Assembly (NCBI GenBank): GCA_001820095.1
Contig: MHOO01000003.1
Coordinates: forward strand, 987-64,986
Origin: Candidatus Staskawiczbacteria bacterium RIFCSPHIGHO2_01_FULL_39_25
GTDB taxonomy: Bacteria; Patescibacteriota; Minisyncoccia; Minisyncoccales; Staskawiczbacteraceae
Reading direction: 5' to 3'
DNA: 64,000 nt
Every line of letters starts with the position of its first letter. Position 1 is the first letter of the stretch. Under the pieces are notes generated by a model. That model saw nothing but the letters and a program-made list of their open reading frames with translations. It had not been told where the DNA came from and made no database searches. Of this stretch, positions 4,295 through 50,121 are shown in pieces. Made by a program: the position numbers and the translations under genes.

Positions 4295-4402
4295 CGTGAA
4301 TTCAGTATCTTGTATCTAGTAGCTAGAATGGAATTTTGAATACAGAATTCAGGATTCTTTTATTCTATTCTAGCTTCCAGCTGCTAGCTCCTAGATTCAA
4401 AT
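4295..4402. repeat. MITE-like palindromic element, family B, copy 1
   Basis: Starts ACGTGAAT just after the rpsG stop. Arms are 7-nt units (GTATCTT/GTAGCTA versus TAGCTTC/TAGATTC). Confidence 0.85.
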
Positions 4403-4404
4403 TT

Positions 4405-6480
4405 ATGAACAGAAGTCATCCTTTAGAAAAACTACGTAACTTCGGAATTATCGCTCACATTGACGCGGGAAAAACAACGGTTTCCGAGCGCCTTTTGTTT
4501 TATACGGGAGTAAGCCATAAAATCGGGGAAGTGCACGAAGGCGATACCGTCATGGACTGGATGCCTCAGGAACGCGAGCGCGGTATTACGATTACCGCAG
4601 CCGCCATTACTATGCAATGGAAAGGCATTCAAATGAACCTTATTGATACCCCCGGCCACATTGACTTTACGGCCGAGGTACAGCGCTCCCTGCGCGTATT
4701 AGACGGCGCTGTGGTAGTGTTTGACGGCGTAGCCGGAGTTGAGCCTCAATCAGAAACGGTATGGCGCCAGGCTGACAAATATGGCACGCCAAGGATTTGT
4801 TTTATCAATAAGCTGGACAGAATGGGTGGAAGTTTTGAAAAGTCATATCAGTCTATTTTAGATAAATTGACGAAAAACGCCGTGGCTATGACCATTCCCA
4901 TTGGAGAAGAAGAACATTTATCAGCCGTAATTGATTTACTGAAAATGAAAGCCATTTATTTTGAGGGCGAGAAAGGAGAAATAGTGGTAGAAAAAGAAAT
5001 TCCGGCGGATATGGTGGGAAAAGCAAAAGCCTGGAGGGAAAAAATGGTAGACCGTATTGCCGGGGAAGACGATGCCTTAACAAATAAATTACTGGGCGGT
5101 GAAGAAATTTCAAACGAAGAACTTATGGCGGCTATGCGAAAAGCTTGCCTGGCGTTTAAGCTGGTGCCGGTATTTTGCGGTTCGGCTTTAAAAAACAAGG
5201 GTACCCAATTTATTTTAGATGCCGTCATTGACTATTTGCCATCGCCTCTAGATATTGGTTTTGTAAAAGGAACCGACCCCAAAACCGGAGCTGAAATTGA
5301 AAGGAAATTTTCTGACACAGAGCCATTTGCAGCTTTGGTGTTTAAAGTTGCCACGGATCCCTTTGTAGGGCAACTTACTTTTTTCAGGGTATATTCAGGC
5401 GTATTAAATAAAGGAACCTATTTATTGAATTCCGTCACCGGAGAACAGGAAAGAATTGCACGGATTTTAAGGATGAAATCCAACTCGCGGGAAGAATTGG
5501 ATGTGATTTACGCTGGCGAAATTGGAGCTACGGTTGGTTTAAAAAATACCATTACCGGCCACACCTTGTGCGATAAGGAAAACCCGGTGGTGCTGGAAAA
5601 AATTTCATTTCCTGAACCGGTTATTTCTATGCGGGTTGAGCCAAAAACCAAGGCTGACCAGGAGAAGCTTATTATGTCTATTCGGAAATTGACCCAGGAA
5701 GACCCAACCTTCAGGATTAAAGAAGATATTGAAACGGGTGAAACTATTATTTCTGGCATGGGCGAACTACACTTAGATATTATTCAAGATCGGCTCAGGC
5801 GTGAATTTAATGTAGACGCAAACTTCGGCAAGCCGCAAGTGGCGTACCGTGAAACGATTACCGCAGAGTCAGAGGCTGAAGAAAAGTATGTGCGCCAATC
5901 CGGTGGAAAGGGGCAATATGGACATGTACGATTAAGGTTAAAGCCTTTGGAGCGAGGCACGGGTTTCCAATTTGTTGATGAAATTAAAGGAGGGGCTATT
6001 CCAAAAGAGTTTATCAAGCCGACCGAAAAGGGCGTGATTGAAGCGCTTGATAAGGGAATTATAGCCGGGTATCCCATGGTTGACGTTGAAGTTACGCTTT
6101 ACGATGGAAGCTTCCACGAAGTGGACTCTTCTGAATTTGCCTTTAAAATTGCCGGATCCATGGCTGTGCAAGCAGGGGCTAAAAAAGCTAAACCGGTTAT
6201 TTTGGAACCCATTATGAAAACCGAAGTAATTACTCCGGATGCTTTTTTTGGAACGGTTATTTCAGATTTAAGCTCTAGAAGAGGGAAAATTGAAGAAACC
6301 AAAGAACGGATGGGAATGAAAGTATTGGATGCTATGGTGCCGTTGTCCGAGATGTTTGGATATGCAACAGCGTTAAGAAGCTTAACAGAAGGCCGAGCAT
6401 CGTTTACTATGGAATTTAATAAATACGAGATTGTTCCAAATAATGTAGCACAGCAAATTATGGAAGGGAAAGTGAAATAA
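4405..6480 (+). CDS. fusA: Elongation factor G
   Basis: [27 protein letters not shown]. The start is moved to ATG 4405 because the upstream ORF extension lies in repeat B1. Confidence 0.97.
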
Positions 6481-6532
6481 TCATTGACTAATTTTTAGAT
6501 ATATAATACAATTAAAACATTAATAAAAACTT

Positions 6533-6662
6533 AACGTGAATCTGGCAGCTAGAAGCTTGAATCTTGAATAGAATACAGAATTCTGAATAATCGTGGCAAA
6601 GCCTATATTCTGAATTCAATATTCCATTCAAGCTACTAGATACTCTATTCTAGATTCTCACA
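6533..6662. repeat. MITE-like palindromic element, family B, copy 2
   Basis: ACGTGAATCTGG...TAGATTCTCAC; imperfect palindrome between fusA and tuf. Confidence 0.85.
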
Positions 6663-6666
6663 AACT

Positions 6667-7860
6667 ATGGCAGAAAAATTTGAGAGGTCCAAGCCTCACG
6701 TAAATATTGGTACCATCGGCCACGTTGACCATGGAAAAACCACGTTGTCAGCCGCAATTATGAAAGTTTCAGGATTGCGCGGTTTTAAGCATACTGAAGC
6801 TGATGTGGATAAAATTGACGCATCTCCGGAAGAAAAGGCACGAGGGGTGACGATTTCTATTACCCACTTGGAAACCGAAACTGCAAAAAGGCACTATGCC
6901 TTGATTGACTGCCCAGGACACGCTGACTACATTAAAAATATGATTACGGGAGCTGCCCAGATGGACGGCGGAATTTTATTGGTTTCTGCTCCAGATGGCC
7001 CTATGCCTCAAACCAAAGAGCACATTCTTTTAGCAAGACAGGTGGGATTACCATCATTGGTGGTATTTATGAATAAAGTTGATATGGTTGATGATCCTGA
7101 AATTTTAGACTTGGTTGAGTCAGAAGTGAGGGAATTATTGAAAAAATATGGGTTCCCAGGAGATGAAACTCCAATTATTAGAGGTTCTGCCTTAAAAGCA
7201 TTATCGGCATCTTCTGTTGATGATCCAGCCGTCAAGCCAATTGTAGAACTGCTTGACGCCGTAGACAGTTATATCCCTGAACCAGTAAGAGAATTAGAAA
7301 AGCCATTTGCCATGGCTATTGAAGACGTGTTCTCCATTGAAGGAAGGGGAACGGTAGCTACGGGAAGAATTGAAAGAGGCGTTGTGCATCCTAACGATGA
7401 AGTTGAAATTATAGGTATCAGGCCGACCCAAAAAACGGTAGTGGTTTCCGTTGAAATGTTCCAAAAGAGCTTAGACGAAGGAAGGGCGGGAGATAATGTG
7501 GGCATTTTATTGAGAGGCTTGAAGAAAGAAGATATTGAACGAGGCCAGGTGCTGGCAAAGCCGGGTTCTATTACCCCTCATACTGAATTTGATAGCGAAG
7601 TATATGTATTAAGCAAGGATGAAGGCGGAAGGCATACGCCATTTTTCACCGGTTATAAGCCTCAGCTTTACATTAGAACTTCTGACATTACCGGAGACGT
7701 AACCTTGCCAGAAGGAACCGAAATGGTAATGCCCGGAGATACCGCAAACCTGAAAGTTAAATTAATTGTGCCGGTAGCATTGGAAGAAAAAGGAAAGTTT
7801 GCTATTAGGGAAGGTGGAAAGACTGTGGGGGCGGGAGTGGTAACAAAGATCACCAAGTAA
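6667..7860 (+). CDS. tuf: Elongation factor Tu
   Basis: [22 protein letters not shown]. Confidence 0.98.
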
Positions 7861-7868
7861 ATTTTCAC

Positions 7869-8252
7869 GTGATGATGGCTCTTAAAAAAGCAACCATAAA
7901 ACCAAAAAAGGCAAAAGCAGAATCTCCGAAAGAGGAAGCGGTAGTTGTTATGCCCAAGCTTAGGATTAAGCTTAAGGCTTACGACCATAAGATTATAGAT
8001 AGTTCGGTCAGGCAGATTATTGATATTGCCAACCGCAGCGGCGTAGAAGTAGTTGGACCGGTGCCCTTGCCAACCGAAATATTAAAATACACGGTGAACC
8101 GATCTACTTTTGTCCATAAAAATGCCAGAGAGCAGTTTGAAATGAGGGTTCACAAAAGAGTCATTGACATCATAAATCCTAATCCTGAAATTATTGAAGC
8201 ATTGCGGGATTTAAACTTGCCATCCGGGGTTGACATCACCATCAAAATTTAA
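7869..8252 (+). CDS. rpsJ: 30S ribosomal protein S10, with a Lys-rich N-terminal extension if the GTG 7869 / ATG 7872 start is real
   Basis: RIKLKAYDHKIIDSS...VHKRVIDI. An alternative start at M28 (7950) would give a canonical length. Confidence 0.93.
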   Translation: MMMALKKATIKPKKAKAESPKEEAVVVMPKLRIKLKAYDHKIIDSSVRQIIDIANRSGVEVVGPVPLPTEILKYTVNRSTFVHKNAREQFEMRVHKRVIDIINPNPEIIEALRDLNLPSGVDITIKI

Positions 8253-8303
8253 TAGTATAGTTAAAATTAAACAATTGTTAACTTTTCCATGATATTTTTT
8301 GAT

Positions 8304-8363
8304 TCACCCGATCAAATAATTTTGCAAAGCAAAATTAGCGCAAGGCGCTATTTGACCGGGTAA
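8304..8363 (+). ncRNA. Three-helix structured element, family H, copy 1
   Basis: Outer stem acccgatcaaa/tttgaccgggt encloses hairpins attttgc-aaa-gcaaaat and tagcgc-aagg-gcgcta. The second copy at 37105 has the same architecture with different hairpin sequences. Confidence 0.6.
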
Positions 8364-8393
8364 AAATATTATAGAATAACAACATTGCCATTG

Positions 8394-8416
8394 AACTGGG
8401 CAATTGCCCAGTTTTT
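8394..8416 (+). terminator. Terminator-like stem-loop 15 nt upstream of the rplC start
   Basis: aactggg-caattg-cccagtt followed by ttttt. Confidence 0.45.
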
Positions 8417-8430
8417 CATTAGAAACAAAG

Positions 8431-9030
8431 ATGAAATTCATTTTAGGAAAAAAAATTGAAATGTCCCAGATGTTTGATGAAAAGGGAAAAGTAATCCCCG
8501 TAACTTTGATTTCAGCGGGGCCATGCGTAGTATTGCAGAAAAAAACCAAAGAAAAAGAAGGATACAATGCCCTGCAGGTGGGTTTTATAAAAATTGAAAA
8601 AAAGAGTAAGGTTAAGAAAACGATGAAGGGAAAAGAATATAGGTACATAAAAGAATTTTTAGTTATTAATGATCAATTATCCAAAAACGTTGGCGATGCA
8701 ATTAATCTTGCTGAATTTAAAGAAGGAGATAAGGTAAATATAGTGGGAATTTCCAAGGGAAAGGGGTTTCAAGGAGCAGTGAAAAGGCATGGGTTTTCAG
8801 GCAGGAATGCAACCCATGGCGCCAAGCACGAAGCCAGAACTGTCGGATCAATCGGGCAAAGGTTTCCTCAGCATACGATCAAAGGGAGAAGAATGCCAGG
8901 AAGGATGGGATACGAAAGGGTTACCGTAAAAAATTTAATAGTCGCAAAAATTGACGCAGAAAATAATATTTTGGCGTTGAAGGGAGCCGTACCGGGACAT
9001 AGAGGTACGTTGCTAGAGATTAGAGGATAG
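8431..9030 (+). CDS. rplC: 50S ribosomal protein L3
   Basis: MKFILGKKIEMSQMFDEKGKVIPVTLI...GFQGAVKRHGF. Confidence 0.95.
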   Translation: MKFILGKKIEMSQMFDEKGKVIPVTLISAGPCVVLQKKTKEKEGYNALQVGFIKIEKKSKVKKTMKGKEYRYIKEFLVINDQLSKNVGDAINLAEFKEGDKVNIVGISKGKGFQGAVKRHGFSGRNATHGAKHEARTVGSIGQRFPQHTIKGRRMPGRMGYERVTVKNLIVAKIDAENNILALKGAVPGHRGTLLEIRG

Positions 9031-9045
9031 GGCGCTTACGGAAGT

Positions 9046-9185
9046 CTTTTGCAATGATGTTAAAAGTACCGATAGTCGAAATTGCCAGCGCAATTTCGCT
9101 ATCTAAATTCTCGGCAGTTTGCGCCGCCAAAGGCGGCGACCATGCCAAACTGCCTGCGAAATTTACTTTTAACATCACTGCAAAA
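9046..9185 (+). ncRNA. 140-nt multi-helix structured element, family G, copy 1 (rplC-rplD spacer)
   Basis: P1 9046-9068/9163-9185 (23 bp). P2 is gatag/ctatc plus cgaaattgc-cagc-gcaatttcg. P3 is ggcagttt/aaactgcc enclosing cgccgcc-aaa-ggcggcg. Junction sequences are identical to the copy at 16276. Confidence 0.65.
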
Positions 9186-9246
9186 GTGAAAATCTTTTCC
9201 ATGCGCTAAAGTAAAATCTTTTATTAGTAATTAGAAATTTGCAGGC

Positions 9247-9888
9247 ATGAAATATCCAGTCTACAATCAAGAGGGCAAAGAGACGGGAGAAGTAAATCTT
9301 CCTAAGGACATATTTGAGGTTCCCTTGAACGCTGATTTGGTGCACCAAGTGGCAATTTCACAGACAGCCAATAAGAGGCAGGTTTCAGCCCATACGAAAG
9401 ACCGGGGTGCAGTACGCGGCGGAGGCAGGAAGCCTTGGAGGCAAAAAGGAACTGGGAGAGCACGAGTAGGGTCTATTAGGTCTCCATTATGGAGGGGCGG
9501 AGGAGTTACGGGAGGCCCAACCAATGAGAAAGTTTATGAAAAGACTATTCCTACTAAAATGAGAAGGAAGGCATTATTTATGGCGCTTAGCCAGAAAGCG
9601 AAAAATAACTTACTGATAGTATTAGATAAATTAGAGATGGAAAACCCAAAGACAAAAATGATGGTAGAAATCATTAAAAAGCTTCCCGGATCAAAAGAAA
9701 GCAGATTAATAACGGCATTGAACGGAGATAAGAAAGTGTTTTTATCAGCAAGGAATATTACAAAAACAAGGGTGGCAGAAGCAAGAAACTTGAATGTGGC
9801 AGATGTGTTAAATTATAAATATCTTATTGTGTCTAAAGACGGAATTAAGGATATAGAGAAGACTTTTGCAAGGCAAAAGTCTGAATAA
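9247..9888 (+). CDS. rplD: 50S ribosomal protein L4
   Basis: GGGRKPWRQKGTGRARVGSIRSPLWRGGG. Confidence 0.95.
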   Translation: MKYPVYNQEGKETGEVNLPKDIFEVPLNADLVHQVAISQTANKRQVSAHTKDRGAVRGGGRKPWRQKGTGRARVGSIRSPLWRGGGVTGGPTNEKVYEKTIPTKMRRKALFMALSQKAKNNLLIVLDKLEMENPKTKMMVEIIKKLPGSKESRLITALNGDKKVFLSARNITKTRVAEARNLNVADVLNYKYLIVSKDGIKDIEKTFARQKSE

Positions 9889-9966
9889 AGAATCTTGTAT
9901 TTGGAAGCTAGAATAAAAAACGATATAACATATTCAATCTTCAAGATACAAAATTCAAGATTCAAA
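9889..9966. repeat. MITE-like palindromic element, family B, copy 3 (short)
   Basis: agaatcttgtatttggaagctagaat...attcaatcttcaagatacaaaattcaagattc. Confidence 0.8.
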
Positions 9967-9969
9967 CAA

Positions 9970-10407
9970 ATGGCTTTATTTGATTTTTTAAAAAGAAAAA
10001 AGGAAGTAGAGAAAGCGAAAGAAAAAATAAAAAAAGAACCGGAAAAAGGGGCGGATAAGGCTTTGGTTGCAAAGCCAAAGAAAGTCGTGGAATCAGACGC
10101 AGAAAAACACGAGAACAAAAAAAATGTAAAGGGATTTTCCTATAGTATTGTAAAAGAACCTCATATTTCTGAAAAATCAACCTTATTAGCAGAAGGCAAT
10201 AAATATACTTTTAAAGTGGATGGCAATGCCAATAAGCCAGAAATAAAAAGATCAGTTGAAGGAATTTATGGGGTAAATGTCTTGGGGGTAAGTATCATAA
10301 AAATTCCAAAAAAGAAAAGAAGGCTAGGAAAAACCGAAGGGTTCAGAAAGGGGTACAGAAAGGCGGTAGTCACTATTAAGAAAGGGCAAAAGATAGAGGT
10401 ATTTTAA
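9970..10407 (+). CDS. rplW: 50S ribosomal protein L23 with a Lys/Glu-rich N-terminal extension
   Basis: IVKEPHISEKSTLL...YTFKVDGNANKPEIKRSVEGIYGV. ATG 9970 is chosen because the upstream ORF part lies in repeat B3. Confidence 0.9.
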   Translation: MALFDFLKRKKEVEKAKEKIKKEPEKGADKALVAKPKKVVESDAEKHENKKNVKGFSYSIVKEPHISEKSTLLAEGNKYTFKVDGNANKPEIKRSVEGIYGVNVLGVSIIKIPKKKRRLGKTEGFRKGYRKAVVTIKKGQKIEVF

Positions 10408-10425
10408 ATTAGTAATTAGTAATTC

Positions 10426-11274
10426 ATGAAGACGTATAAACCAACTACACCAAGCCGAAGAGGAATGACTGGAATTGACTTTTCTTTGCTTACCAAGAAA
10501 AAAGCAGAAAAGAGCCTTTTGAAATATGTCAGAAGAAGCGTTGGAAGGTCCAAAGCATCAGGAAGAATTACCGTACGACATAAAGGCGGAGGGGTAAAAA
10601 AACTCTATAGGATTATAGAATTCAGCCAGAGCATTATGGATGCGCCCGCGAAGGTGATTGCCTTAGAATATGACCCTAATAGGACCGCATTTATTGCACT
10701 AATAGAATATCCTTCAACAGTTTCGGGAAAAGTCCCAAAAAGACAATATATTATCGCCCCGCAGGATTTAAAAGTTGGCGATAGTATTATTTTTTCAGAT
10801 AAGGCGCTTCTTACGGCTGGAAACAGAATGAAGCTAAAAAATATATCGGTGGGGACTGCAGTGTATAACATTGAATTAGAGCCGGGCAGGGGAGGAATTT
10901 TAGTAAGATCAGCGGGGTCAGCAGCCCAAGTATTAGCGCAAGAGCACAGCTTTACCAACTTGAAAATGCCTTCGGGCGAAGTAAGAAGAGTAAAAGATGA
11001 ATGTTTTGCTTCTATAGGAATGGTTTCAAATCCAGAAAACAGATTTTATACGGTAGGAAAGGCAGGCAAATCAAGGCTAAAGGGAAGAAGGCCGCATGTG
11101 AGGGGAAGTGCCATGAATCCTGTTGACCATCCGCACGGAGGGGGCGAGGGCCGCCAGCCCATTGGATTAAAACATCCAAAAACTCCATGGGGTAAACCAG
11201 CATTAGGAGTGAAAACAAGATATCGAAAAAAGTGGACAAACAAATATATTATCAGCCGCAGGAAAAAGAAGTAA
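10426..11274 (+). CDS. rplB: 50S ribosomal protein L2
   Basis: RGSAMNPVDHPHGGGEGR. Confidence 0.97.
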   Translation: MKTYKPTTPSRRGMTGIDFSLLTKKKAEKSLLKYVRRSVGRSKASGRITVRHKGGGVKKLYRIIEFSQSIMDAPAKVIALEYDPNRTAFIALIEYPSTVSGKVPKRQYIIAPQDLKVGDSIIFSDKALLTAGNRMKLKNISVGTAVYNIELEPGRGGILVRSAGSAAQVLAQEHSFTNLKMPSGEVRRVKDECFASIGMVSNPENRFYTVGKAGKSRLKGRRPHVRGSAMNPVDHPHGGGEGRQPIGLKHPKTPWGKPALGVKTRYRKKWTNKYIISRRKKK

Positions 11275-11276
11275 CG

Positions 11277-11392
11277 TGAATATAGAATCTGGTATCTGGA
11301 AGCTAGAATGGAATAAAGAATAGTGAATGTGTATGAAATTCTAAATTCCAAATTCAATTCAAGCTTCAAGATACTAAATTCAAGATTCAAAA
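11277..11392. repeat. MITE-like palindromic element, family B, copy 4
   Basis: CGTGAATATAGAATCTGGTATCTGG...CAAGATACTAAATTCAAGATTCAAA. Confidence 0.85.
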
Positions 11393-11394
11393 CA

Positions 11395-11727
11395 ATGAGC
11401 AGGAGTTTAAAAAAAGGTCCGTTTGTGGATCAAAAATTAATAGAGAAGGTCTTAAAGGTAAGGAAAGAAGAAAAGGTTATTATTAAGACTTGGGCACGAT
11501 ATTCAACTATTTCTCCTGAAATGGTAGGGTTTACCTTTGGCGTGCATAATGGGAAGGAATTTGTTCCGGTATATGTAGGAGAGGATATGGTGGGGCACAA
11601 GTTAGGAGAATTTGCTCCTTCTACCAAGTTTTCAAGGCATGGAGGACGAATGCAGAAAGAGTTAGAGCAAAGATCTGAACAAGCCACCGCGGTAAAAACA
11701 GAAGCAGTAACAAAACCAGCAAAATAA
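11395..11727 (+). CDS. rpsS: 30S ribosomal protein S19 (with C-terminal extension)
   Basis: [12 protein letters not shown]...[13 protein letters not shown]. Confidence 0.95.
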
Positions 11728-11808
11728 CAATTGACAATTGACAATTGACAATTGACAACGTTTTCTAAAATTCGTTGGTCAAATGTTAAATGTCAAAGGT
11801 CAAATGTA
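11728..11808. repeat. Heptamer-array hairpin, family A, (ACAATTG)n / (GTCAAAT)n, copy 1
   Basis: Begins at the nucleotide after the rpsS TAA. Four ACAATTG units, an acg...cgt loop, then a GTCAAAT-type right arm. Confidence 0.9.
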
Positions 11809-11811
11809 GTA

Positions 11812-12291
11812 ATGGAAGTAAAAGTTTCATTGAACAATTTAAGAACGGCGCCACGAAAGTCACGGGAAGTGGTTGATTTAATACGGAATAAAAATGTGGC
11901 ACAAGCTAGGAGCCTCCTTGAGTTTACGGTTAGAAGATCAGCAGAACCTATACTAAAGCTTTTAAATAGCGCGGCAGCTTCGGCAGTACATGATTTTAAA
12001 TTAGAAGAATCTAATTTATACATTTCTAAAGTAACCGTAGATGAGGGGCCGAAATTAAAAAGATGGCATCCTATGTCCCGAGGCAGAGCATATCCTATTA
12101 TCAAAAGAACGTCGCATATTACTCTGATATTGTCAGAGAAATCCGAAGACGGGAGTTTCGGCAGAGCCGAAAACTCTCGCGTCTCGCAAGCACGAAATCC
12201 GAAATCCGAAACCGCCCCAACATTAAAGATTGTTAAAAAAAGCAAGCCAAATCTAAAATCTAAAACCAAGAAAATTAAAAAAAATAAATAA
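11812..12291 (+). CDS. rplV: 50S ribosomal protein L22 with a C-terminal extension of about 50 aa that reads through a family C repeat arm
   Basis: MEVKVSLNNLRTAPRKSREVVDLIR...RTSHITLILSEK core, then SEDGSFGRAENSRVSQARNPKSE... encoded by repeat sequence. Confidence 0.92.
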   Translation: MEVKVSLNNLRTAPRKSREVVDLIRNKNVAQARSLLEFTVRRSAEPILKLLNSAAASAVHDFKLEESNLYISKVTVDEGPKLKRWHPMSRGRAYPIIKRTSHITLILSEKSEDGSFGRAENSRVSQARNPKSETAPTLKIVKKSKPNLKSKTKKIKKNK

Positions 12292-12352
12292 AATTCAAAA
12301 TATGTTTCGAATTTCGATATTCGGATTTCGAATTTCTTTTGCAAAGCAAAAG
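12137..12352. repeat. Heptamer-array hairpin element, family C, copy 2 (the left arm lies inside the rplV ORF)
   Basis: gcacgaaatccgaaatccgaaac (12189-12211) is complementary to gtttcgaatttcgatattcggatttcgaatttc. It ends in the mini-hairpin cttttgc-aaa-gcaaaag just before the rpsC ATG. Confidence 0.85.
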
Positions 12353-12354
12353 CT

Positions 12355-13029
12355 ATGACTCACAAGGTACATCCAAAAGCATTTAGAATAAAAGGAATGG
12401 AGGATTTCAATATCCGCGGTTTTTATGGCAATAAAATGCCTCAGTATTTAGAGGAAGACTTTTTAATTAAGGATTTTCTAAGGGATAAATTATCGGAAGC
12501 GTCGGTTGCAAATATAGAAATAGAGCATTCTGCAAGTAAATTGAATATTATTATTGAAACAGCAAGGCCAGGGCTGATTATAGGGCGAGGAGGAGAAGGA
12601 GTAGAAATATTAAAGAAAGCCATAGAGCAGAAATTAAAAAATTTGAGAAAAACAAGCATTGGGGCTGCGTTAAAGTCTCAGGTGGGGCAAGTAAAAATAG
12701 ATATTAAAGAAATTAAAAACCCGTGGATTTCTGCGATGCTGGTTGCCCAGATGGCTGCTCAGCAAATTGAAAAAAGGATTCCTTTCAGGCAAGTATTAAA
12801 AAGAAGCATAGAGCGGGTGATGCAGAATAAAGAAGTGAAAGGCATAAAAATGGAGGTCTCAGGAAGATTAAACGGCATTGAAATTGCACGAAAAGAATGG
12901 TTAAAGCAAGGCAGAATGCCCCTGCAAACCATACGGGCAGATATTGATTATGCCCAAACGGAAGCGTATTGCACCTATGGAGCCATTGGGGTAAAAGTAT
13001 GGCTATATAAAGGAGAAAAGTTTGAATAA
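12355..13029 (+). CDS. rpsC: 30S ribosomal protein S3
   Basis: KVHPKAFRI...RPGLIIGRGGEG...SGRLNGIEIAR. Confidence 0.96.
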   Translation: MTHKVHPKAFRIKGMEDFNIRGFYGNKMPQYLEEDFLIKDFLRDKLSEASVANIEIEHSASKLNIIIETARPGLIIGRGGEGVEILKKAIEQKLKNLRKTSIGAALKSQVGQVKIDIKEIKNPWISAMLVAQMAAQQIEKRIPFRQVLKRSIERVMQNKEVKGIKMEVSGRLNGIEIARKEWLKQGRMPLQTIRADIDYAQTEAYCTYGAIGVKVWLYKGEKFE

Positions 13030-13110: not shown

Positions 13111-13124
13111 TAAGCATGAGCTTA

Positions 13125-14225: not shown

Positions 14226-14228
14226 GTT

Positions 14229-14597: not shown

Positions 14598-14599
14598 AT

Positions 14600-14917: not shown

Positions 14918-14921
14918 AAAT

Positions 14922-15566: not shown

Positions 15567-15571
15567 GTAAC

Positions 15572-15759: not shown

Positions 15760-15870
15760 ACGTGAATCTAGAATCTGGTATCTTGTAGCTGGAATACCTG
15801 TCTGCGCAGGCAGGAAATAAAGGAATAACGAATTCAAGCTTCAAGATTCAAAATTCAAGATTCTCACTAA
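15760..15870. repeat. MITE-like palindromic element, family B, copy 5, with a GC-rich apical palindrome
   Basis: ACGTGAATCTAGAATCTGGTATCTTG...; apex cctgtctgcgcaggcagg at 15797-15814. Confidence 0.85.
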
Positions 15871-16585: not shown

Positions 16586-17137
16586 ATGAGCCGAATCGGT
16601 AAAAAATTAATTGAAATTCCTTCTGCTGTAAAAGTGGAATTTGACGGCCAGAATGTGAAAGTTTCAGGGCCAAAAGGGGAATTAAAAACCATAATCCATC
16701 GCGATATTAAAGCGGAAGCGAAAGATGGCAAGATTTTTGTATCCCCTAAAAGCAAGGATGCATCTAATAAGGTGAGAGGATTATGGGGCCTGTACCGGGC
16801 ATTAATTTTTAATATGATACAAGGGGTGGAAAAAGGCTTTGAAAAGAAACTGGAAATTGAGGGTGTTGGTTATAAAGCGGCAGTGCAGGGAGATGAATTG
16901 GTGTTGAACCTTGGATTTGTGAATCCGGTTAAAATTAAAAAGCCCGAAGGAATTACCTTTGCTGTTGAAAAAAATCTTATTACTATTTCAGGAATTAATA
17001 AAGAAGCTGTTGGACAAATTGCCGCAGAAATACGGGCAACTAAAAAAGCAGAGCCATATAAAGGCAAAGGCATTAAATACCAGGGAGAAAGGATTAGGAG
17101 AAAAGAAGGAAAGAAGGTAGTCGCCGCCAAGAAATAG
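16586..17137 (+). CDS. rplF: 50S ribosomal protein L6
   Basis: MSRIGKKLIEIPSAVKVEFDGQNVKVSGPKGEL. Confidence 0.96.
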   Translation: MSRIGKKLIEIPSAVKVEFDGQNVKVSGPKGELKTIIHRDIKAEAKDGKIFVSPKSKDASNKVRGLWGLYRALIFNMIQGVEKGFEKKLEIEGVGYKAAVQGDELVLNLGFVNPVKIKKPEGITFAVEKNLITISGINKEAVGQIAAEIRATKKAEPYKGKGIKYQGERIRRKEGKKVVAAKK

Positions 17138-17248
17138 GAATCTAGATTCTTGTATCTTGAAGCTAGAATACAAAAAAACAAGAGTAGGATTTAGAAATTC
17201 AATATTCAAAATTCTATTCAAGATACCAGATACAAGACTCAAGATTCA
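17138..17248. repeat. MITE-like palindromic element, family B, copy 6
   Basis: ggaatctagattcttgtatcttgaagctagaat...attcaagataccagatacaagactcaagattc. Confidence 0.85.
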
Positions 17249-17256
17249 TTTTGACT

Positions 17257-20299: not shown

Positions 20300-21013
20300 A
20301 TGTCAAAGCAAGTTATTATTTTATTCGGGCCGCCGGGGGCGGGAAAAGGCACGCAGTCAGAGCTCTTATCTGAAAAGATGGGGCTGTATTTATTTGAGAC
20401 CAGCAAAATTCTAGAAAAGGAGTTTAAAAAAGCAGAAGATATGCCAGGAGATTCCCCTGAACGGTTTGTAGAAATTGAAGGCGAAAAATTTGATGTATTA
20501 AATGAAAAAGAAATTTGGAAAAAAGGGGAATTATGCAGTCCGCCGTGGGTAACCTATCTTACGATGAAAGAGTTTAAACGATTACATGATGATGGCGATA
20601 ATTTAATTATTGCGGGATCTCCAAGAACCGTTTACGAAGCCGAACGGGAGATGCCTCTTTTGGCTGAATTATATGGCAAGGAACATATAAAAATAGTACT
20701 AATAGAAATTTCAGCGGATGTAACGGTATTCAGGAACACGCATAGGAAGATTTGCGAGTTAATGCGCCACTCTATTTTATTTAATAAAGAAACCGAAACG
20801 CTGACGATTTGCCCTTTAGACGGTTCTAAATTAATGAAACGCAAAGATCTAGATGATCCCGAAACCATAAAAACAAGGCTTGAACAATATAAAGCAAGAA
20901 CCCTGCCGTTATTCAATTATTTTAAAGAGAATAATTTTAACGTCCATAAAATCAATGGAGAGGGAAGTGTGGCAAAGGTGCATGAAGAAATACTGCGAAT
21001 AGTGGAAGTGTGA
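20300..21013 (+). CDS. adk: Adenylate kinase (long form)
   Basis: MSKQVIILFGPPGAGKGTQ P-loop. The TGA stop is part of the GTGAAT terminus of repeat B7. Confidence 0.85.
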   Translation: MSKQVIILFGPPGAGKGTQSELLSEKMGLYLFETSKILEKEFKKAEDMPGDSPERFVEIEGEKFDVLNEKEIWKKGELCSPPWVTYLTMKEFKRLHDDGDNLIIAGSPRTVYEAEREMPLLAELYGKEHIKIVLIEISADVTVFRNTHRKICELMRHSILFNKETETLTICPLDGSKLMKRKDLDDPETIKTRLEQYKARTLPLFNYFKENNFNVHKINGEGSVAKVHEEILRIVEV

Positions 21014-21146
21014 ATATAGAATCTCATATCTTGAATCTGGAATACCTGCCTGCGCAGGCAGGGAATAAAAGAATACTGAATGTAAAAATTCACATTCTAA
21101 ATTCATTATTCAATTCAAGCTACAAGATACAAAATTCAAGATTCAA
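21009..21146. repeat. MITE-like palindromic element, family B, copy 7, with a GC-rich apical palindrome
   Basis: GTGTGAATATAGAATCTCATATCTTG...; apex cctgcctgcgcaggcagg at 21045-21062. Confidence 0.85.
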
Positions 21147-21151
21147 TTTAG

Positions 21152-34374: not shown

Positions 34375-35382
34375 ATGTTTAACAATAAAATAGCTATTGA
34401 CCTTGGAACTTGCAACTCCTTAGTATACTTGCGTGGCAAGGGAGTAGTATTAAGCGAACCTTCTGTGGTGGCAATTTCCTTGTCTGATAATAGGATTCTG
34501 GCGGTAGGGGAAGCAGCAAAAGAAATGATAGGCCGGACTCCGGCTGATATTAAGGTATACCGGCCACTTAAAGACGGCGTCATTGCTGATTACAAAGTAA
34601 CTCAGGCAATGATGCGCCATTTCATTGCCAAGGCAACTCCTAACTTTAACTTTTTTAAGCCTGAACTGGTTATTTCGGTTCCTGCCGGCATTACCAGCAC
34701 CGAGAGGAGAGCGGTCATTGAAGCAGCTCTTTCGGCAGGGGCCAGGCAGGCATTTGTAGCCAAAGAGCCAATTTTAGCAGCCATTGGAGCAGGCATACCG
34801 ATTAACTCGTGCTCCGGCCATATGATTATTGATATTGGAGGGGGAACCTCTGAAGTGGCAGTCATTTCTTTGGGCGGTATTGTGACGGCCCATTCGGTAC
34901 GGGTAGCAGGGGATAAAATAGATCTTGCCATTACCGACTACATAAAAAAGAAATACAATTTAGCCATTGGCACCCAATCGGCAGAAGAAATAAAAATAAA
35001 GGTGGGGACAGCGCTCCCGCAGAAAGAACCCAGGTTTATGGAAATCCAGGGACGCGACTTGATTTTAGGTTTGCCAAGAAATATTAAAATATCAAATAAT
35101 GAGGTGTGCGAAGCAATTTCCGATGTATTGGCTGAAATTATCCAGGCGGCGAAACAGGTCTTATCTGAAACTCCGCCAGAGCTTTCCGCTGATATTATGA
35201 ATAAGGGAATTATTATGGCTGGCGGAGGATCATTGCTTCCTAAAATAAATGAGTTAGTTGCTCAAAGCACCGGGGTCCCCTGTTTTATTGCTGAAGAACC
35301 CTTGTTTTGCGTTATCAAGGGCACCGGCACAGTTTTAGAGCATTTAGAGGAATATAAAAAAGTGGTAATGTCAAAAAAATAG
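34375..35382 (+). CDS. mreB: Rod shape-determining protein MreB (paralog 1)
   Basis: IAIDLGTCNSLVY...IIDIGGGTSEVAVISLGGIV...MAGGGSLL. Confidence 0.95.
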   Translation: MFNNKIAIDLGTCNSLVYLRGKGVVLSEPSVVAISLSDNRILAVGEAAKEMIGRTPADIKVYRPLKDGVIADYKVTQAMMRHFIAKATPNFNFFKPELVISVPAGITSTERRAVIEAALSAGARQAFVAKEPILAAIGAGIPINSCSGHMIIDIGGGTSEVAVISLGGIVTAHSVRVAGDKIDLAITDYIKKKYNLAIGTQSAEEIKIKVGTALPQKEPRFMEIQGRDLILGLPRNIKISNNEVCEAISDVLAEIIQAAKQVLSETPPELSADIMNKGIIMAGGGSLLPKINELVAQSTGVPCFIAEEPLFCVIKGTGTVLEHLEEYKKVVMSKK

Positions 35383-35384
35383 AA

Positions 35385-35500
35385 TCTTGAATTTAGTATC
35401 TTGAAGCTTGAATTGAATTTTGAATTTGGAATGTGATGTTTTACATTCAGTATTCTCTTATTCTATTCTAGATTCAAGATACCAGATTCTAGATTCATAG
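35385..35500. repeat. MITE-like palindromic element, family B, copy 8, inverted relative to copies 4 and 9
   Basis: Its reverse complement (tgaatctagaatctggtatcttgaatctagaatagaat...caagatactaaattcaagattc) aligns with 11279-11392. Confidence 0.85.
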
Positions 35501-41546: not shown

Positions 41547-41548
41547 TC

Positions 41549-45420: not shown

Positions 45421-45588
45421 GGAGTATATATACAACCACGCTAAAACCTATTTTGTGGAAAATTGACGAACGAACCGACGACGAACAAGACCGTATGCCC
45501 GCGGGCACACGGGGCGAAACAAACGACGAGCAAAAATTTTCTGGGCTGGGGGGAGAAAATTTTTGCCGTTAAGGCGAGTAAATTTTAA
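45421..45588. repeat. Left arm of a perfect 168-bp inverted repeat
   Basis: I reverse-complemented it by hand; it is identical at 168/168 positions to 47079-47246. Confidence 0.95.
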
Positions 45589-45633
45589 ATATTGAGAATT
45601 TAGATAAAAGATGATAATATATATGTAAATATT

Positions 45634-46548
45634 ATGAATCAAAAAGGTTTTATTCAAATACCTGTACTCGTCTCAATTATTGTGGGTGTTTTAATTTTGG
45701 GTAGTGGAGGATATTTTGGAGTAAAACAATATAGAAACTATCAATTAGAAAGAATTGAAAAAGAAAAAATTTATCAAACAGAAAAAGAAACTCAACAGCA
45801 AAAAGATTTGGAAGTTGAAAAGTTGAAAAAAGAGGTAGAGGAATTAAAAAATAAGAAACCAGAGGTTGTACAACAAACCATAGTTAAAGAAGTTATTGTG
45901 CCAAAAACAGAAATGGATCTTCCATCTATAATTAAACAATGGAGACCCAGAATAGTCTATATTGTTTGTGAATGGAGGTATTCTGATACTGGAGAAGTTT
46001 ATGCTCAAGGCAGCGGCTCAGGATTACTTTTTGCAAAATCTAAAGACAATTTAGCTTTACTTGTAATGACAAACAAACATGTTTTAGCGGATGGTCAATA
46101 TGTGGCAAGTTCGTGCGATATTTCTTTTCCTAGTTTAAATGAAACATTTAAGGTGAGTACAAATTCTTTGATGGAATCTGTTTCGGGACTTGACTGGGGA
46201 TTAATTCGTTTCCAATCTTCCAACGGATACTTGAATTCTCTTGTTGTATCTGGTCCCATTGAATCATATCCCTCTGTTTGTAAAAAACCTGCGTTAGTAG
46301 GAGATGAAATAGTTATTTTAGGTTATCCTGGAATTGGTTCTCAATCTGATATAACAGCGACAGAAGGAATAATCTCAGGGCGTGATGGAGATTATTACAT
46401 TACCTCTGCTAAAATCGATCGTGGTAATTCTGGTGGAGCTGCTATATCTTTAAAAGACAATTGCTATCTAGGTATTCCAAGTTTTGCACAAGTTGGTCAA
46501 ATAGAATCCTTGGGAAGGATTTTAGACATAGAAGCAGTGTATAAATAA
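45634..46548 (+). CDS. Membrane-anchored trypsin-like (S1/HtrA-type) serine protease with a coiled-coil linker
   Basis: N-terminal TM helix, EKEKIYQTEKETQQQKDLEVEKLKKEVEELK, then TNKHV (His) and DRGNSGGAA (Ser) motifs. Confidence 0.8.
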   Translation: MNQKGFIQIPVLVSIIVGVLILGSGGYFGVKQYRNYQLERIEKEKIYQTEKETQQQKDLEVEKLKKEVEELKNKKPEVVQQTIVKEVIVPKTEMDLPSIIKQWRPRIVYIVCEWRYSDTGEVYAQGSGSGLLFAKSKDNLALLVMTNKHVLADGQYVASSCDISFPSLNETFKVSTNSLMESVSGLDWGLIRFQSSNGYLNSLVVSGPIESYPSVCKKPALVGDEIVILGYPGIGSQSDITATEGIISGRDGDYYITSAKIDRGNSGGAAISLKDNCYLGIPSFAQVGQIESLGRILDIEAVYK

Positions 46549-46561: not shown

Positions 46562-47068
46562 ATGACAAATGAACTAAAAACATGTAGCGATTGCGGTCAA
46601 GAACTTAGGAGGTGTTTGAAATGCAAACAAGTGATAAAAATTGGTGATGATAAAAGAAAAAGTATTGGATTTAAACTTCTTATTATCTTTATAGTTTTAT
46701 TTTTTGTTTCGATTGTTTTGCTGAATTTTAAATTTGATATATTCTATAAATTGATAGCAGAAAATCAAAGTTTTTTTGGGCAAATAATTTTTATCTTTGC
46801 ATTTTGCATATTAGGAATTTCTTCTAGGGCATTTAGTTTTTATTATAGAGCGAAAAGAGAAGGTTTTGCATGGAGGACATCTAACCCCCAGCAGGTATAT
46901 TTTGTTGAATATTTGATTATTAGTTTTGTAGCTTCGGTTTTTATATTCTCTATTCTAATAATCATGTCGTCGCTGCCAACTTATATTTTTTATCTATTGG
47001 GCGGTTCAGTTGGTATTGTGGCCGGATATAGAGGATATGCATTTTTAGACAATATGAGGATTGGATAG
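46562..47068 (+). CDS. Zinc-ribbon (CxxC-x6-CxxC) protein with four TM helices
   Basis: CSDCGQELRRCLKCKQ followed by hydrophobic helices. Confidence 0.6.
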   Translation: MTNELKTCSDCGQELRRCLKCKQVIKIGDDKRKSIGFKLLIIFIVLFFVSIVLLNFKFDIFYKLIAENQSFFGQIIFIFAFCILGISSRAFSFYYRAKREGFAWRTSNPQQVYFVEYLIISFVASVFIFSILIIMSSLPTYIFYLLGGSVGIVAGYRGYAFLDNMRIG

Positions 47069-47078: not shown

Positions 47079-47246
47079 TTTAAAATTTACTCGCCTTAAC
47101 GGCAAAAATTTTCTCCCCCCAGCCCAGAAAATTTTTGCTCGTCGTTTGTTTCGCCCCGTGTGCCCGCGGGCATACGGTCTTGTTCGTCGTCGGTTCGTTC
47201 GTCAATTTTCCACAAAATAGGTTTTAGCGTGGTTGTATATATACTC
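47079..47246. repeat. Right arm of the perfect 168-bp inverted repeat
   Basis: See 45421-45588. It contains the internal palindrome tgcccgcgggca. Confidence 0.95.
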
Positions 47247-47712: not shown

Positions 47713-47743
47713 CTTTATAAAAAATATATTACATTTAAAGAAA

Positions 47744-48856
47744 ATGCCTTACGCCAAACAGTATATTCAATCTCTCTTAGACAGTGCGGGGATTCAAATT
47801 AACGGCCCCAATGCTTTTGATATCCAGGTCTATAATGATCAGTTGTATCGCCGTATGTTAAGGGGTAATTCTTTGGCGCTGGGAGAATCCTATATGGAAG
47901 GATGGTGGGATGCAAAAGAGTTGGATGTATTTTTCTTTAAAATTTTTCAAGCCCGCCTTCATGAAAAAATGGCATGGTCCTGGTCGGAAATTATATCTTT
48001 TTTGCATGCAGTAATTTTTAACCTTGAAACCAAGTCCCGTTCTTTTATTGTCGGCAGGCAGCATTATGATATTGGAAATGATATTTATGCCGCCATGCTT
48101 GGCAAAACGCTTACCTACAGTTGCGGCTACTGGAAAGATGCCCAAAATCTTGACCAAGCGCAAGAGGCAAAACATAACCTTATATGCCAAAAGATAGGGT
48201 TAAAAAAGGGTGATAGAGTGCTGGATATTGGGTGCGGATGGGGGAGTTTCTTGAAATTTGCGGCAAAGGCCTATGGCGCGAAAGGCACGGGCATTACTGT
48301 TTCAAAAGAGCAAGCGGCATTGGCAAAAAATCTTTGCACAGGTTTACCTATAGAAATTCTCTTGCAAGATTATCGCGATACTACGGGAAAATTTGACCAT
48401 ATTGTTTCTGTGGGAATGTTTGAGCATGTAGGAGTGAAAAATTACCGTACCTACATGGAAGATGTGAACAATCTTTTAAAAGACGACGGTTTGTTTCTTC
48501 TTCATACCATTGGTTCAAGCCGTGGCATATCCATTGACCCTTGGATAGAAAAATATATTTTTCCTAATAGCATGCTTCCTTCTGCTGCGCATATTAGCAA
48601 GGCCATAGAGGGTATTTTTGTCATGGAGGATTGGCATAACTTCGGAGCATATTACGATAAAACGCTCATGGCATGGTTTGAAAATTTCAACGCGCATTGG
48701 CTCCAACTGCAATCAAAATACTCTGAAACGTTTTATAGGATGTGGAAGTATTACTTGCTTAGCTGCGCGGCCAGTTTTAGGGCGCGCCATAACCAACTAT
48801 GGCAAATTATCCTTTCAAAAAGGGGAGTAAAAGGAGGATATGTATCGGTAAGATAA
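47744..48856 (+). CDS. cfa: Cyclopropane-fatty-acyl-phospholipid synthase
   Basis: HYDIGNDIY...VLDIGCGWGSF...VSVGMFEHVG. The start is moved to ATG 47744 because the ORF-track start lies inside the terminator hairpin. Confidence 0.92.
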   Translation: MPYAKQYIQSLLDSAGIQINGPNAFDIQVYNDQLYRRMLRGNSLALGESYMEGWWDAKELDVFFFKIFQARLHEKMAWSWSEIISFLHAVIFNLETKSRSFIVGRQHYDIGNDIYAAMLGKTLTYSCGYWKDAQNLDQAQEAKHNLICQKIGLKKGDRVLDIGCGWGSFLKFAAKAYGAKGTGITVSKEQAALAKNLCTGLPIEILLQDYRDTTGKFDHIVSVGMFEHVGVKNYRTYMEDVNNLLKDDGLFLLHTIGSSRGISIDPWIEKYIFPNSMLPSAAHISKAIEGIFVMEDWHNFGAYYDKTLMAWFENFNAHWLQLQSKYSETFYRMWKYYLLSCAASFRARHNQLWQIILSKRGVKGGYVSVR

Positions 48857-48913
48857 CTATCTTTAATTGTTTTTTAAAATATGCTACATTTAAAATACTA
48901 AATCCACTACAAT

Positions 48914-50015
48914 ATGGTCCAAATAACTCAAAATATAGAGGGATTAGAGGAGAAAGTCCATTATTTAGTGGACCGCCTTTGATGTAAATGGAAAGCAAAA
49001 AGAGTTAAAGAAGCTGGAAGCAGAAACACAGGCCCCTGAATTTTGGAAAGACCAGGAAAGGGCAACTGCCGCAAGCCAAAAGATCGCTTTTTTAAAAGAG
49101 GAAATAGAAACAATAGAATCACTGAAAAAAGAATTAATTGACCTAAAAGAGCTGGAGTATTTGACAAAAAGCGATGAAAACCTTAAGAAAGAACTAGAAA
49201 AAAAGTGGAGCGTATTGAAAGAAAAAATTGCCAAAGAAGAATTTAGAATTTTCTTATCTGGCAAATACGACCGCAATAATGCGATTATAGAAATATTTTC
49301 GGGGGCAGGGGGTGTGGATGCCCAGGATTGGGCCACGATGCTTTTGAGGATGTATGAGAGGTATTGCGCACAAAAAAGGTTTTCAGTCCAGGTGTTGCAC
49401 CAGTCGTTTGGGGAGGCAGGCGGGCCGGATGGAAGAATTGGCACAAAATCAGCTACCTTGGAAATAAAAGGGAAGTATGCTTACGGCCTTTTAAAAAAAG
49501 AGACGGGAGTCCATAGATTGGTGCGCATTTCTCCGTTTAGTGCCCAAAAATTGCGCCATACATCTTTTGCGTTGGTTGAGGTTTTGCCGGAAATAGAGCA
49601 GCAAGATACAGAAATTGAAATAAAGCCTGAAGAGTTAAAAATAGATACATTCAGGGCATCAGGGCCTGGGGGGCAGTACGTCAACAAAACGGAATCAGCC
49701 ATACGAATTACCCATATACCAACAGGTCTGGTAGTTTCTTCGCAGTCAGAACGGCTGCAAGGCAAGAATAAGGAACACGCCATGAAAATCCTGTATGCCA
49801 AACTGCATCAGTTGCAAGCAGTAGAACATAAAAAAGAGCTGAAGGAAATTAAGGGCGAATCAATTTCTGCGTCTTGGGGGAACCAGATACGGTCATATGT
49901 CCTGCACCCTTATAGGATGGTAAAAGATTTAAGAACGCAGTATGAAACATCGGACACGGAAGGAGTATTGGATGGGGAATTAGATGAATTTATACAGGCC
50001 GAAATAAGAATCTAG
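48914..50015 (+). CDS. prfB: Peptide chain release factor 2, requiring a programmed +1 frameshift at CTT TGA T (48977-48983)
   Basis: Frame 1 is MVQITQNIEGLEEKVHYLVDRL, then TGA. The +1 frame continues DVNGKQKELKKLEAETQAPEFWKDQERA...SGPGGQYVNKTESAIRITHIPTG. Confidence 0.9.
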
Positions 50016-50121
50016 AATCTGGAATCTTGAATCTGGAATAGAATGCTGAATATGGGGCTTCGTATTCTAAATTCCAAATTCAATTCAAGCTACCAGATAC
50101 TAAATTCAAGATTCAAGTTAT
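50016..50121. repeat. MITE-like palindromic element, family B, copy 9
   Basis: tctagaatctggaatcttgaatctggaatagaat...attcaagctaccagatactaaattcaagattcaag. Confidence 0.85.

Follow-up and report, generated by a model that had tools for sequence, protein, structure and literature searches.

Heptad-periodic palindromes anchored to start codons in the operon spacers of Candidatus Staskawiczbacteria

A stretch of 64,000 nucleotides from the genome of Candidatus Staskawiczbacteria bacterium RIFCSPHIGHO2_01_FULL_39_25 (contig MHOO01000003.1, positions 987 to 64,986; hereafter the window) was analysed for Family B, a family of palindromic elements situated in the spacers between its genes. The window holds the str, S10, spc and alpha ribosomal-protein operons, with nearly all genes on the plus strand and in the order rpsG, fusA, tuf, rplD, rplB, rpsN (of the Z type), rplF, adk (divergent) and map, with mreB, prfB and further genes after these. 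No L30 gene is present between rpsE and rplO, an absence that is common among bacteria of the candidate phyla radiation (CPR). Several homologues of its adk have Candidatus Staskawiczbacteria as their source, and a contig of GCA_001822005.1 was found to be 100% identical to the window over 5.6 kb. Shine-Dalgarno (SD)-like cores are depleted, in that one precedes only 1 of the 56 genes of the window as compared with 13.7% of random sites, and the 20 nt before these 56 starts are 75% A+T. Since the plus strand both carries the genes and has a positive GC skew, the directions of transcription and replication are confounded here.

An nhmmer profile built from Family B copies retrieved exactly nine elements from the window (E-values of 1e-12 to 1e-29; next match E=0.18), and the same nine were recovered by repeat finding and by pattern searches, thus bearing out the original prediction of this family, which had been made from the bare sequence. 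All nine copies fold to long hairpins (z-scores from -2.7 to -6.9), with 0 of 200 shuffles folding as well. The copies, and the small GC-rich palindromes nested in two of them, are located as follows.

4293..4401, plus strand: Family B copy in the rpsG-fusA spacer; the most diverged copy, of ambiguous orientation (74.5 versus 72.8 bits); hairpin z = -2.67
6533..6661, plus strand: Family B copy upstream of tuf, beginning 52 nt past the fusA stop and ending 9 nt short of the tuf ATG (5 nt for the model envelope); z = -4.70
9879..9966, plus strand: short Family B copy in the rplD-rplW spacer, with the rplD stop TAA (9886-9888) within its first units; z = -4.61
11274..11390, plus strand: Family B copy in the rplB-rpsS spacer; z = -5.85; this spacer is 32 nt long in L006 and empty in L050 and L147
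15760..15867, plus strand: Family B copy with an apical GC palindrome, in the rpsN-rpsH spacer; z = -4.27
15797..15814, no strand assigned: 18-nt GC-rich palindrome CCTGTCTGCGCAGGCAGG, nested after GGAATA in the copy at 15760
17135..17250, plus strand: Family B copy in the rplF-rplR spacer, its first unit overlapped by the rplF stop TAG (17135-17137); z = -5.38
21008..21148, plus strand: Family B copy with an apical GC palindrome, in the adk-map spacer; its first unit contains the adk stop TGA (21011-21013), and the map ATG follows at 21152; z = -4.98
21045..21062, no strand assigned: 18-nt perfect GC-rich palindrome CCTGCCTGCGCAGGCAGG, nested in the copy at 21008 at the same site as in the copy at 15760
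35379..35499, minus strand: inverted Family B copy in the spacer between mreB and the next gene; z = -6.91
50005..50118, plus strand: Family B copy in the spacer between prfB and an ABC-ATPase (ftsE-like) gene, its first unit overlapped by the prfB stop TAA; z = -4.73

The L numbers used here and below denote loci from other genomes and from metagenomes. The copy at 35379-35499 had been predicted to be inverted among plus-strand genes, and this was confirmed: it is 90%, 81% and 93% complementary to the copies at 21008, 50005 and 11274, respectively, its minus-strand score is 105 bits as compared with 61 for the plus strand, and both mreB and the gene after it are plus-strand genes. The two 18-bp GC-rich palindromes were likewise present in the copies for which they had been proposed, with 0.02 expected by chance. 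A strong sigma-70-like promoter match (TTGACT-17-TACAAT, 6484-6512) was also noted in the fusA-tuf spacer, just upstream of the copy at 6533.

Each Family B element is a non-coding imperfect palindrome of about 85-140 bp (individual copies measure 85-141 nt), in which tandem heptamers make up both arms, with the form GAAT-NNN in the 5' arm and the form NNN-ATTC in the 3' arm. The units GAATCTN, GTATCTN and GAAGCTN form two facing complementary arrays around a shared centre, and six of the nine copies in the window have the upstream stop codon overlapping or adjoining their first heptamer. The consensus drawn from 31 copies, which is approximately 112 nt long and AT-rich, begins (AC)GTGAATCT and runs nGTGAAT CTnGAAT CTTGTAT CTTGAAG CTGGAAT AGAATAnnGAATAnnGAA ... 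AATTCnAAATTCAAnATTCnATTCAAGCTACnAGATACTAAATTCAAGATTC. Each copy folds as a rod in which helices of 4-6 bp are separated by 1x1 or 3x3 loops every 7 nt, and length differences between copies amount mostly to whole 7-nt units. A strict self-similarity test at lag 7 was passed by 995 nt of the window, compared with 0-31 nt at the other lags from 3 to 12 and 0 in shuffles; all of the heptamer arrays of the window are intergenic. The original prediction had described shared termini, and these motifs are real (12 and 15 matches with up to three mismatches, against 0.00 expected from 100 shuffles), but they are the outer tandem heptamer units rather than special ends. The outer ~33 nt of the arms are complementary (87% of cells paired), such that the inverted repeat is the whole periodic arm and has no distinct terminus. 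Over 31 copies and 40 pairs, 81% of cells pair. The pairs at the seventh position are unpaired in 25-27 of some 31 copies at three of the four heptad junctions and in 17 of 31 at the fourth, and two more mismatches (C.A and A.A) are kept in 22-25 copies.

Further copies were found outside the window, in at least seven Staskawiczbacteria-type metagenome-assembled genomes (MAGs) and in metagenomes. A scan of species-representative genomes with a 20-nt right-arm pattern retrieved 19 loci from seven such MAGs, and at least about 55 metagenomic contigs carried additional copies. Some of the MAGs bearing Family B are labelled Saccharibacteria in their records, yet share the operon. Eight more matches to the 20-nt pattern, in Bacteroidota and other phyla, were at about chance level, and eight exact-pattern matches in viral contigs, none of which was Family B by profile, were discarded as chance matches.

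Orientation and position were assessed among the matches listed, to which all counts in this paragraph refer, and which comprise 71 distinct, clearly oriented full copies from all data. Fifty-six copies were co-oriented with same-strand genes on both sides, seven were inverted and eight were unresolved, giving a co-oriented share of 89% (56 of 63 resolvable copies). In 52 of the 56 co-oriented copies the right end (GATTC) lay 2-13 nt before a start codon, most commonly at 6, 7 or 9 nt, whilst the distance from the upstream stop ranged from -8 to 215 nt. Even where the upstream stop was at least 18 nt away, 14 of 17 copies had their end 6-11 nt ahead of the start. Start codons thus anchor the elements, since the distance at the right end is tight even when the upstream stop is remote, and the 56:7 orientation ratio together with this anchoring indicates that a strand- and position-specific constraint exists. 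The inverted copy in the window had been taken to argue for mobility rather than a strand-specific role; as orientation proved not to be neutral, that argument was not supported. Nor are the copies strictly co-oriented with transcription, given the seven inverted ones.

The spacers from rplB to rplQ were compared one by one with those of four relatives, and later of seven. Both occupancy and family were found to vary by genome, a given slot being empty, holding Family B or holding another family. For instance, between rpsN and rpsH the window and the MHOT01 genome (L019) have Family B and L003 has Family A (described below), while in L001 and L006 this spacer is short. Family B occupies the rplV-rpsC spacer in L003, where the window has another family, and the rplO-secY spacer in L001, where the window has an A-like element. 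It is present between rplF and rplR in the window and L003, with the slot empty in L005 and L048, and in the prfB-ftsE-like spacer of the window, L010, L089 and L080.

The adk-map junction bears on the stop codon that the original prediction had regarded as supplied by the element. These two genes overlap (ATGA) or lie within 14 nt of each other in L001, L003, L005 and L006; Family B separates them in the window and L049, and other heptad hairpins do so in L048 and L050. Because the window and L049 are not sisters in a neighbour-joining tree of seven proteins (1597 columns), the junction was either colonised more than once or the element was precisely removed several times. The adk stop TGA (21011-21013) does lie in the element terminus, inside GTGTGAATATAG, the first unit of the copy at 21008, but the view that the element supplied it was not upheld, for relatives without the element have the codon at the same position. 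When aligned, the adk protein of the window and that of L001 terminate at one position (VAKVHEEILRIVEV and VAKVHEEILKILEK, each followed by the stop), and the ancestral adk/map junction ATGAAT already includes TGAAT, which is the element's end, hence the stop is better read as ancestral. It is the map start codon that had to be re-created, and this now stands at 21152, 7 nt past the right end of the element (GATTC, 21140-21144).

The copies were also compared in sequence. Those at 11274 and 21008 and the inverted one at 35379 are closest to one another (87-88% identity), which points to copying within this genome, and between copies from different sites identity is 80-93% over 56-87 nt, non-repetitive centre included. 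The Family B consensus persists in species with core-protein identities of only 75-87%.

At the apex, the small palindrome CCTG(Y)CTGC(C)G(G)CAGGCAGG, 18-21 nt in length and seen in about eight instances, occupies one and the same position (GGAATA|...|GAATA) within Family B copies from L008, L083 and the window (two copies). It occurs outside Family B as well, in L008 (twice), L011 and L034. The shared apex site in several genomes and the stand-alone instances identify it as a separate small dispersed repeat that is nested in Family B; of the two options originally offered, a nested insertion or a protein-binding site, the former is thus the better, and the small palindrome would itself be mobile. 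In L034 (6035-6140) it has the genuine start of fusA on one side and a truncated second copy of the 5' end of fusA on the other, which suggests that this duplication was associated with its insertion. Other Family B copies contain larger nested palindromic elements of 48-190 nt near the apex, and since they sit there, the apex evidently tolerates extra sequence while the base of the hairpin is held in place. Three of the nested elements have GACCTG...CAGGTC ends with TA on both sides (L029, 5706-5970; L049, 10726-10898, the same as in L123; and L059, 1941-2213), resembling an IS630/mariner-type target duplication, and further types of nested element were present in L130 (2681-2978), L076, L104 and L128.

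With modest confidence, we favour the reading that Family B consists of non-autonomous copy-and-paste palindromes which are tolerated or selected beside start codons, where they probably enforce translational coupling. Copies would be gained, lost and replaced in short operon spacers as non-autonomous copy-and-paste DNA, other small palindromic elements would insert into their apices, and copies would survive where they are least harmful or somewhat useful, namely directly upstream of start codons and in the majority (89%) orientation. Co-transcribed with the operon, an element would form a rod hairpin in the mRNA, with the stop codon upstream and the start codon downstream brought together at one helix base, and a ribosome terminating upstream could unwind the first 10-15 bp, freeing the start region. 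Because the genome is without SD sites and the start is at the helix base, downstream initiation would then depend on upstream translation, which is to say that coupling would be enforced. Structure-mediated translational coupling operates in ribosomal-protein operons, and we infer the coupling step from the geometry of the elements and general knowledge of such coupling. Additional effects on RNase III processing and 3'-end protection are plausible by analogy with the ERIC, Correia and REP (repetitive extragenic palindromic) elements. The copying mechanism and all of the RNA-level effects we infer likewise.

Several observations weigh against this reading, and those that concern mobility are considered first. 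Mean copy identity is 79.5% within genomes and 79.1% between them, unlike what recent bursts would leave. The same slot holds Family B in several species (prfB-ftsE, rplF-rplR and rpsN-rpsH), which, with the orientation and position constraint, would also fit a conserved function. Among 13 same-species contigs (at least 98.7% identical, most at least 99.7%) all retain the copies, hence recent mobility was not demonstrated, and an all-against-all flank search retrieved no two contigs of 90-99% identity with differing occupancy. No direct repeat was shared in the flanks of 32 copies that might represent a target-site duplication; at adk-map, the pair TGAAT/TGATT is indistinguishable from the element's own end, which the ancestral ATGAAT resembles. 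No distinct terminal inverted repeat was found beyond the palindrome itself, and no transposase, RAYT or reverse transcriptase is encoded in the 64-kb window. The collected loci yielded no long element flanked by Family B arms, and split profile matches that were considered as longer parent elements were rejected, being Family B copies with nested elements. A reverse-transcriptase (RVT_1) gene was observed in L050 (14817-15896), between an RNaseH-like gene and alaS.

The same holds for the pairing of the RNA. No compensatory base-pair change was detected over 31 copies and 40 pairs (covariation of 0.025 versus 0.036 in shuffles, with 497 of 500 shuffles equalling or exceeding the observed value), and the sense RNA is less stable than the antisense (mean difference +2.1 kcal/mol) and has fewer G-U pairs (49 versus 86), on which grounds selection of a sense-strand RNA was rejected. 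Selection for RNA pairing as such was demonstrated neither by covariation nor by strand stability. The absence of covariation, the conserved mismatch positions and the lack of any excess in sense-strand stability together imply that both arms are conserved as sequence, mismatches included, a pattern that fits copies of a master sequence and not an RNA kept by compensatory change.

It is possible, if unlikely, that Family B is a functional cis-acting RNA and not selfish DNA, in other words a set of selected leader or intercistronic signals in an SD-less genome. The elements might serve for coupling, as an RNase III processing site or as a binding platform of the standby or S1/Csp type, with the similarity of the copies kept by selection or gene conversion. 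Such a role would account for the predominance of co-oriented copies, for the very tight distance to the start codon even with a distant upstream stop, for the mismatch positions conserved in 22-27 of some 31 copies and for a consensus kept across divergent species, and it suits the absence of SD sites; there is also a precedent in the TAACTGA heptamer arrays located just upstream of SD-less starts in Beggiatoaceae (PMC4679880). However, close relatives have these spacers empty or the genes overlapping, which means that no copy is required, and different families fill the same spacer in different genomes. In addition, covariation is lacking, seven inverted copies persist, and the apex tolerates nested insertions of 18-190 nt.

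We strongly doubt, by comparison, that the elements are single-stranded DNA (ssDNA) hairpins moved by a Y1 enzyme (IS200/IS605 or RAYT-type) encoded elsewhere, in which case their orientation bias would reflect replication direction. REPIN/RAYT systems are a known precedent for ssDNA hairpin mobilisation, and imperfect hairpins with conserved mismatches and no target-site duplication would be in keeping with it, as would a strong orientation bias in a window where gene direction and GC skew coincide. No Y1 or RAYT gene is present in the window, though, and the elements are 3-5 times the length of REPs, do not have the GTAG/CGTC head and have no conserved 4-5-nt target beside one end apart from stop codons; the anchoring to start codons would also be left unexplained by this mechanism. 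An origin in place, by which heptamer simple repeats expand through slippage in each spacer and become palindromic independently without any copying, is very improbable. It draws on the generality of heptamer periodicity in the spacers with many unit sequences, on length differences of mostly whole units and on the heptamer arrays of unrelated phyla, but it cannot account for the 80-93% identity between sites, in which the non-repetitive centre is shared, nor for the shared mismatch positions and the same palindrome nested at the same site. The chance that they represent stem-loop tigRNAs, the guide-RNA units of a TIGR-Tas system, is practically nil, for although stem-loop TIGR arrays and TasR have been described from Candidatus Staskawiczbacteria (bioRxiv 10.64898/2026.09.09.750476), and Family B elements are, like tigRNAs, hairpins with internal mismatches, the consensus has neither box C (RUGAUGA) nor box D (CUGA), no Nop-domain or Tas gene lies in the window, and the copies occur one by one, scattered over housekeeping operons, and not in an array by a tas gene, with no spacer-like variable pair between conserved stems; this identity was rejected accordingly.

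Family B was also compared with described repeat families. Among its closest parallels are the enterobacterial ERIC/IRU, Neisseria Correia/NEMIS and pneumococcal RUP/BOX elements, which are likewise non-coding imperfect palindromes of ~100-130 bp in transcribed operon spacers and in either orientation. The presence of these elements differs between related genomes, and their long mRNA hairpins can affect mRNA stability or processing. Family B nonetheless has no sequence relationship with them, and differs in that its arms are 7-nt units with mismatches at 7-nt intervals, that no TA or other target duplication was found, that its copies are 89% co-oriented and lie 2-13 nt from starts, and that its host is an SD-less CPR bacterium.

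The original prediction that Family B is like a MITE (a miniature transposable element with inverted repeats) was upheld in part. The elements are short (85-141 nt), non-coding, multi-copy and intergenic, have an inverted-repeat structure and nesting, and differ in presence between species, but they have no target-site duplication, no transposase in the window or identified parent insertion sequence, and no presence/absence polymorphism among contigs that are at least 98.7% identical. Moreover, the whole Family B element is a periodic palindrome and not two terminal inverted repeats round an unrelated core. Membership of the classical MITEs failed on the missing target-site duplication, and no parent element was found in the window or the collected loci.

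As with REP/REPIN-RAYT systems (PMC3733652), Family B comprises dispersed, high-copy extragenic hairpin palindromes without target-site duplication and with possible ssDNA mobilisation. REPs are, however, GC-rich and 20-40 nt long with a GTAG/CGTC head, whereas Family B is AT-rich, 85-140 nt long and heptad-periodic, with no RAYT gene in the window, and membership was rejected on size, composition and head motif. TAACTGA repeats in Beggiatoaceae, cyanobacteria and Bacteroidetes occur within a few nt upstream of SD-less starts, are strain-variable and change by 7-nt indel steps (PMC4679880). Family B shares its 7-nt unit and intergenic location with these and with the cyanobacterial STRR repeats, and with the TAACTGA arrays also the placement of its right end 2-13 nt from an SD-less start codon (52 of 56, among the matches listed). 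In contrast to those direct arrays of one heptamer, Family B has facing complementary arrays of other units (GAATCTN and similar) that form a hairpin, and whole elements, including the non-repeat centre, are copied between sites. The 18-21-nt GC palindrome behaves like a small dispersed repeat of Nostoc and sits inside heptamer arrays, although its sequence and host differ. Those Nostoc repeats, reportedly described by Elhai et al. in 2008, are said to be 21-27 nt long.

The right arms of Family B are followed by A-rich sequence and then the start codon. None of the seven copies within the region scanned for intrinsic terminators (4000-22000) was flagged, the total number of sites being that of shuffles, and a terminator identity was rejected on this basis. 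Only four tRNAs matched Rfam at the gathering score, and permissive filters added only sub-threshold generic miRNA-precursor hairpins (E 0.1-0.75).

Family B is not the only periodic element in the window. At least six further heptamer families share its design (CAATTGA/TCAAATG, TTTCGAA, AATTTTC, TAATTAG, AATTTGA and ACGAATT), and their hairpins have rod folds within the same z range (-2.7 to -6.9). As other spacers thus have the same architecture with other units, Family B is one member of a class defined by architecture, which we term heptad-periodic hairpin elements; the class is specific to Candidatus Staskawiczbacteria and apparently undescribed. Family A hairpins, whose 5' arm is built of (ACAATTG)n and whose 3' arm is built of (GTCAAAT)n, every unit bearing an A.A mismatch, were found at 11720-11815, 13023-13115, 14133-14231, 15474-15566, 18253-18335, 18767-18846, 26848-26941, 27044-27145 and 37202-37298, all in one orientation and ending 4-9 nt before start codons. 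In L003 this family occupies the rpsS-rplV and rpsN-rpsH spacers. More heptad arrays or hairpins, with the units TTTCGAA/ATCCGAA, AATTTTC, TAATTAG, AATTTGA and ACGAATT, lie at 12292-12354, 25088-25200 and 2055-2115; 27533-27600, 34313-34369 and 40845-40910; 2303-2440 and 41410-41548; 50806-50947 and 51869-51914; and 17599-17709. Several of these bear small GC-rich mini-hairpins with GCAA or GAAG-type loops.

A wider proposal, and a decidedly unlikely one in our estimation, is that heptad-periodic hairpins constitute a new intercistronic or leader class, defined by helices of 4-6 bp, a conserved mismatch every 7 nt and an end 6-9 nt before the start codon, which would serve ribosome hand-over or loading in SD-less CPR bacteria. 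The families would then be interchangeable, spread by copying and be recognised by one periodicity-sensing factor, such as S1 or a cold-shock-type protein contacting ~7 nt per domain. Whatever their role, the interest of the elements lies more in the class, that of heptad-periodic, start-anchored hairpins saturating the spacers of operons in a CPR lineage, than in one MITE family by itself. CPR bacteria (Patescibacteria) have tiny, tightly packed genomes in which expression signals and mobile DNA are almost unstudied, and here one lineage, with genomes lacking SD sites, fills the spacers of those operons that are most essential to it with 100-nt hairpins; full-text literature searches returned no description of such elements in CPR bacteria. 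If selfish, the elements show which insertions a streamlined genome tolerates, and they offer a marker that changes between species, with no strain differences seen. If they act in translation, they would represent a mechanism of initiation or coupling not described elsewhere. The recurrence of a 7-nt unit in unrelated families, as well as in cyanobacteria, Beggiatoaceae and Acidobacteriota, touches on the old and unexplained over-representation of heptamers in bacteria.

Long AT-rich (NNATTCA)n arrays resembling the right arm of Family B were observed within GC-rich flanks in three Acidobacteriota contigs (L025, 1040-1400; L013, 4990-5070 and 6085-6125; and L026, 1280-1310), hence heptamer arrays of this type are not confined to the CPR. 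The load of heptad hairpins is high in the window, L003 and L049 and low in L005 and L006. The latter, a relative that is poor in them, has another GC-rich palindromic element (..ACCCCGCCCTCTATGCTAAATGA...GCTTAGAGGGCGGGGTG..) in several ribosomal-operon spacers, for instance at 6456-6556 and 17557-17624. A different and more MITE-like family is represented in the window by two copies of a ~150-nt palindromic element (77-88% identity), at 9046-9197 in the rplC-rplD spacer and at 16276-16426 in the rpsH-rplF spacer, with the terminal inverted repeats CTTTTGCA..GTTAAAAGTA ... TACTTTTAA..TGCAAAAG. The long rpsH-rplF spacer also includes a strong sigma-70-like promoter match (TTGACG-17-TATAAT, 16501-16529), and in relatives it contains small minus-strand open reading frames (ORFs).

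Several other features of the window were recorded. The prfB gene has a programmed +1 frameshift site, CTT TGA (48977-48982), downstream of which the frame DVNGKQKE... matches RF2. A perfect 168-nt inverted repeat (45422-45589 and 47079-47246) flanks a trypsin-like peptidase gene (45634-46548) and an ORF of unknown function (46562-47068), and could mark an invertible or composite segment or an assembly artefact. On the minus strand at 54226-57380, an AlwI-family restriction endonuclease gene overlaps a gene whose single product, an unusual fusion, unites a LexA DNA-binding domain with both an S24 peptidase and an N6/N4 DNA methylase. Lastly, the rplP-rpmC spacer contains a 44-nt tandem duplication (13533-13620), of which the same-species contigs L043 and L047 have one copy fewer, and the number of these repeats was the only length polymorphism seen among strains.

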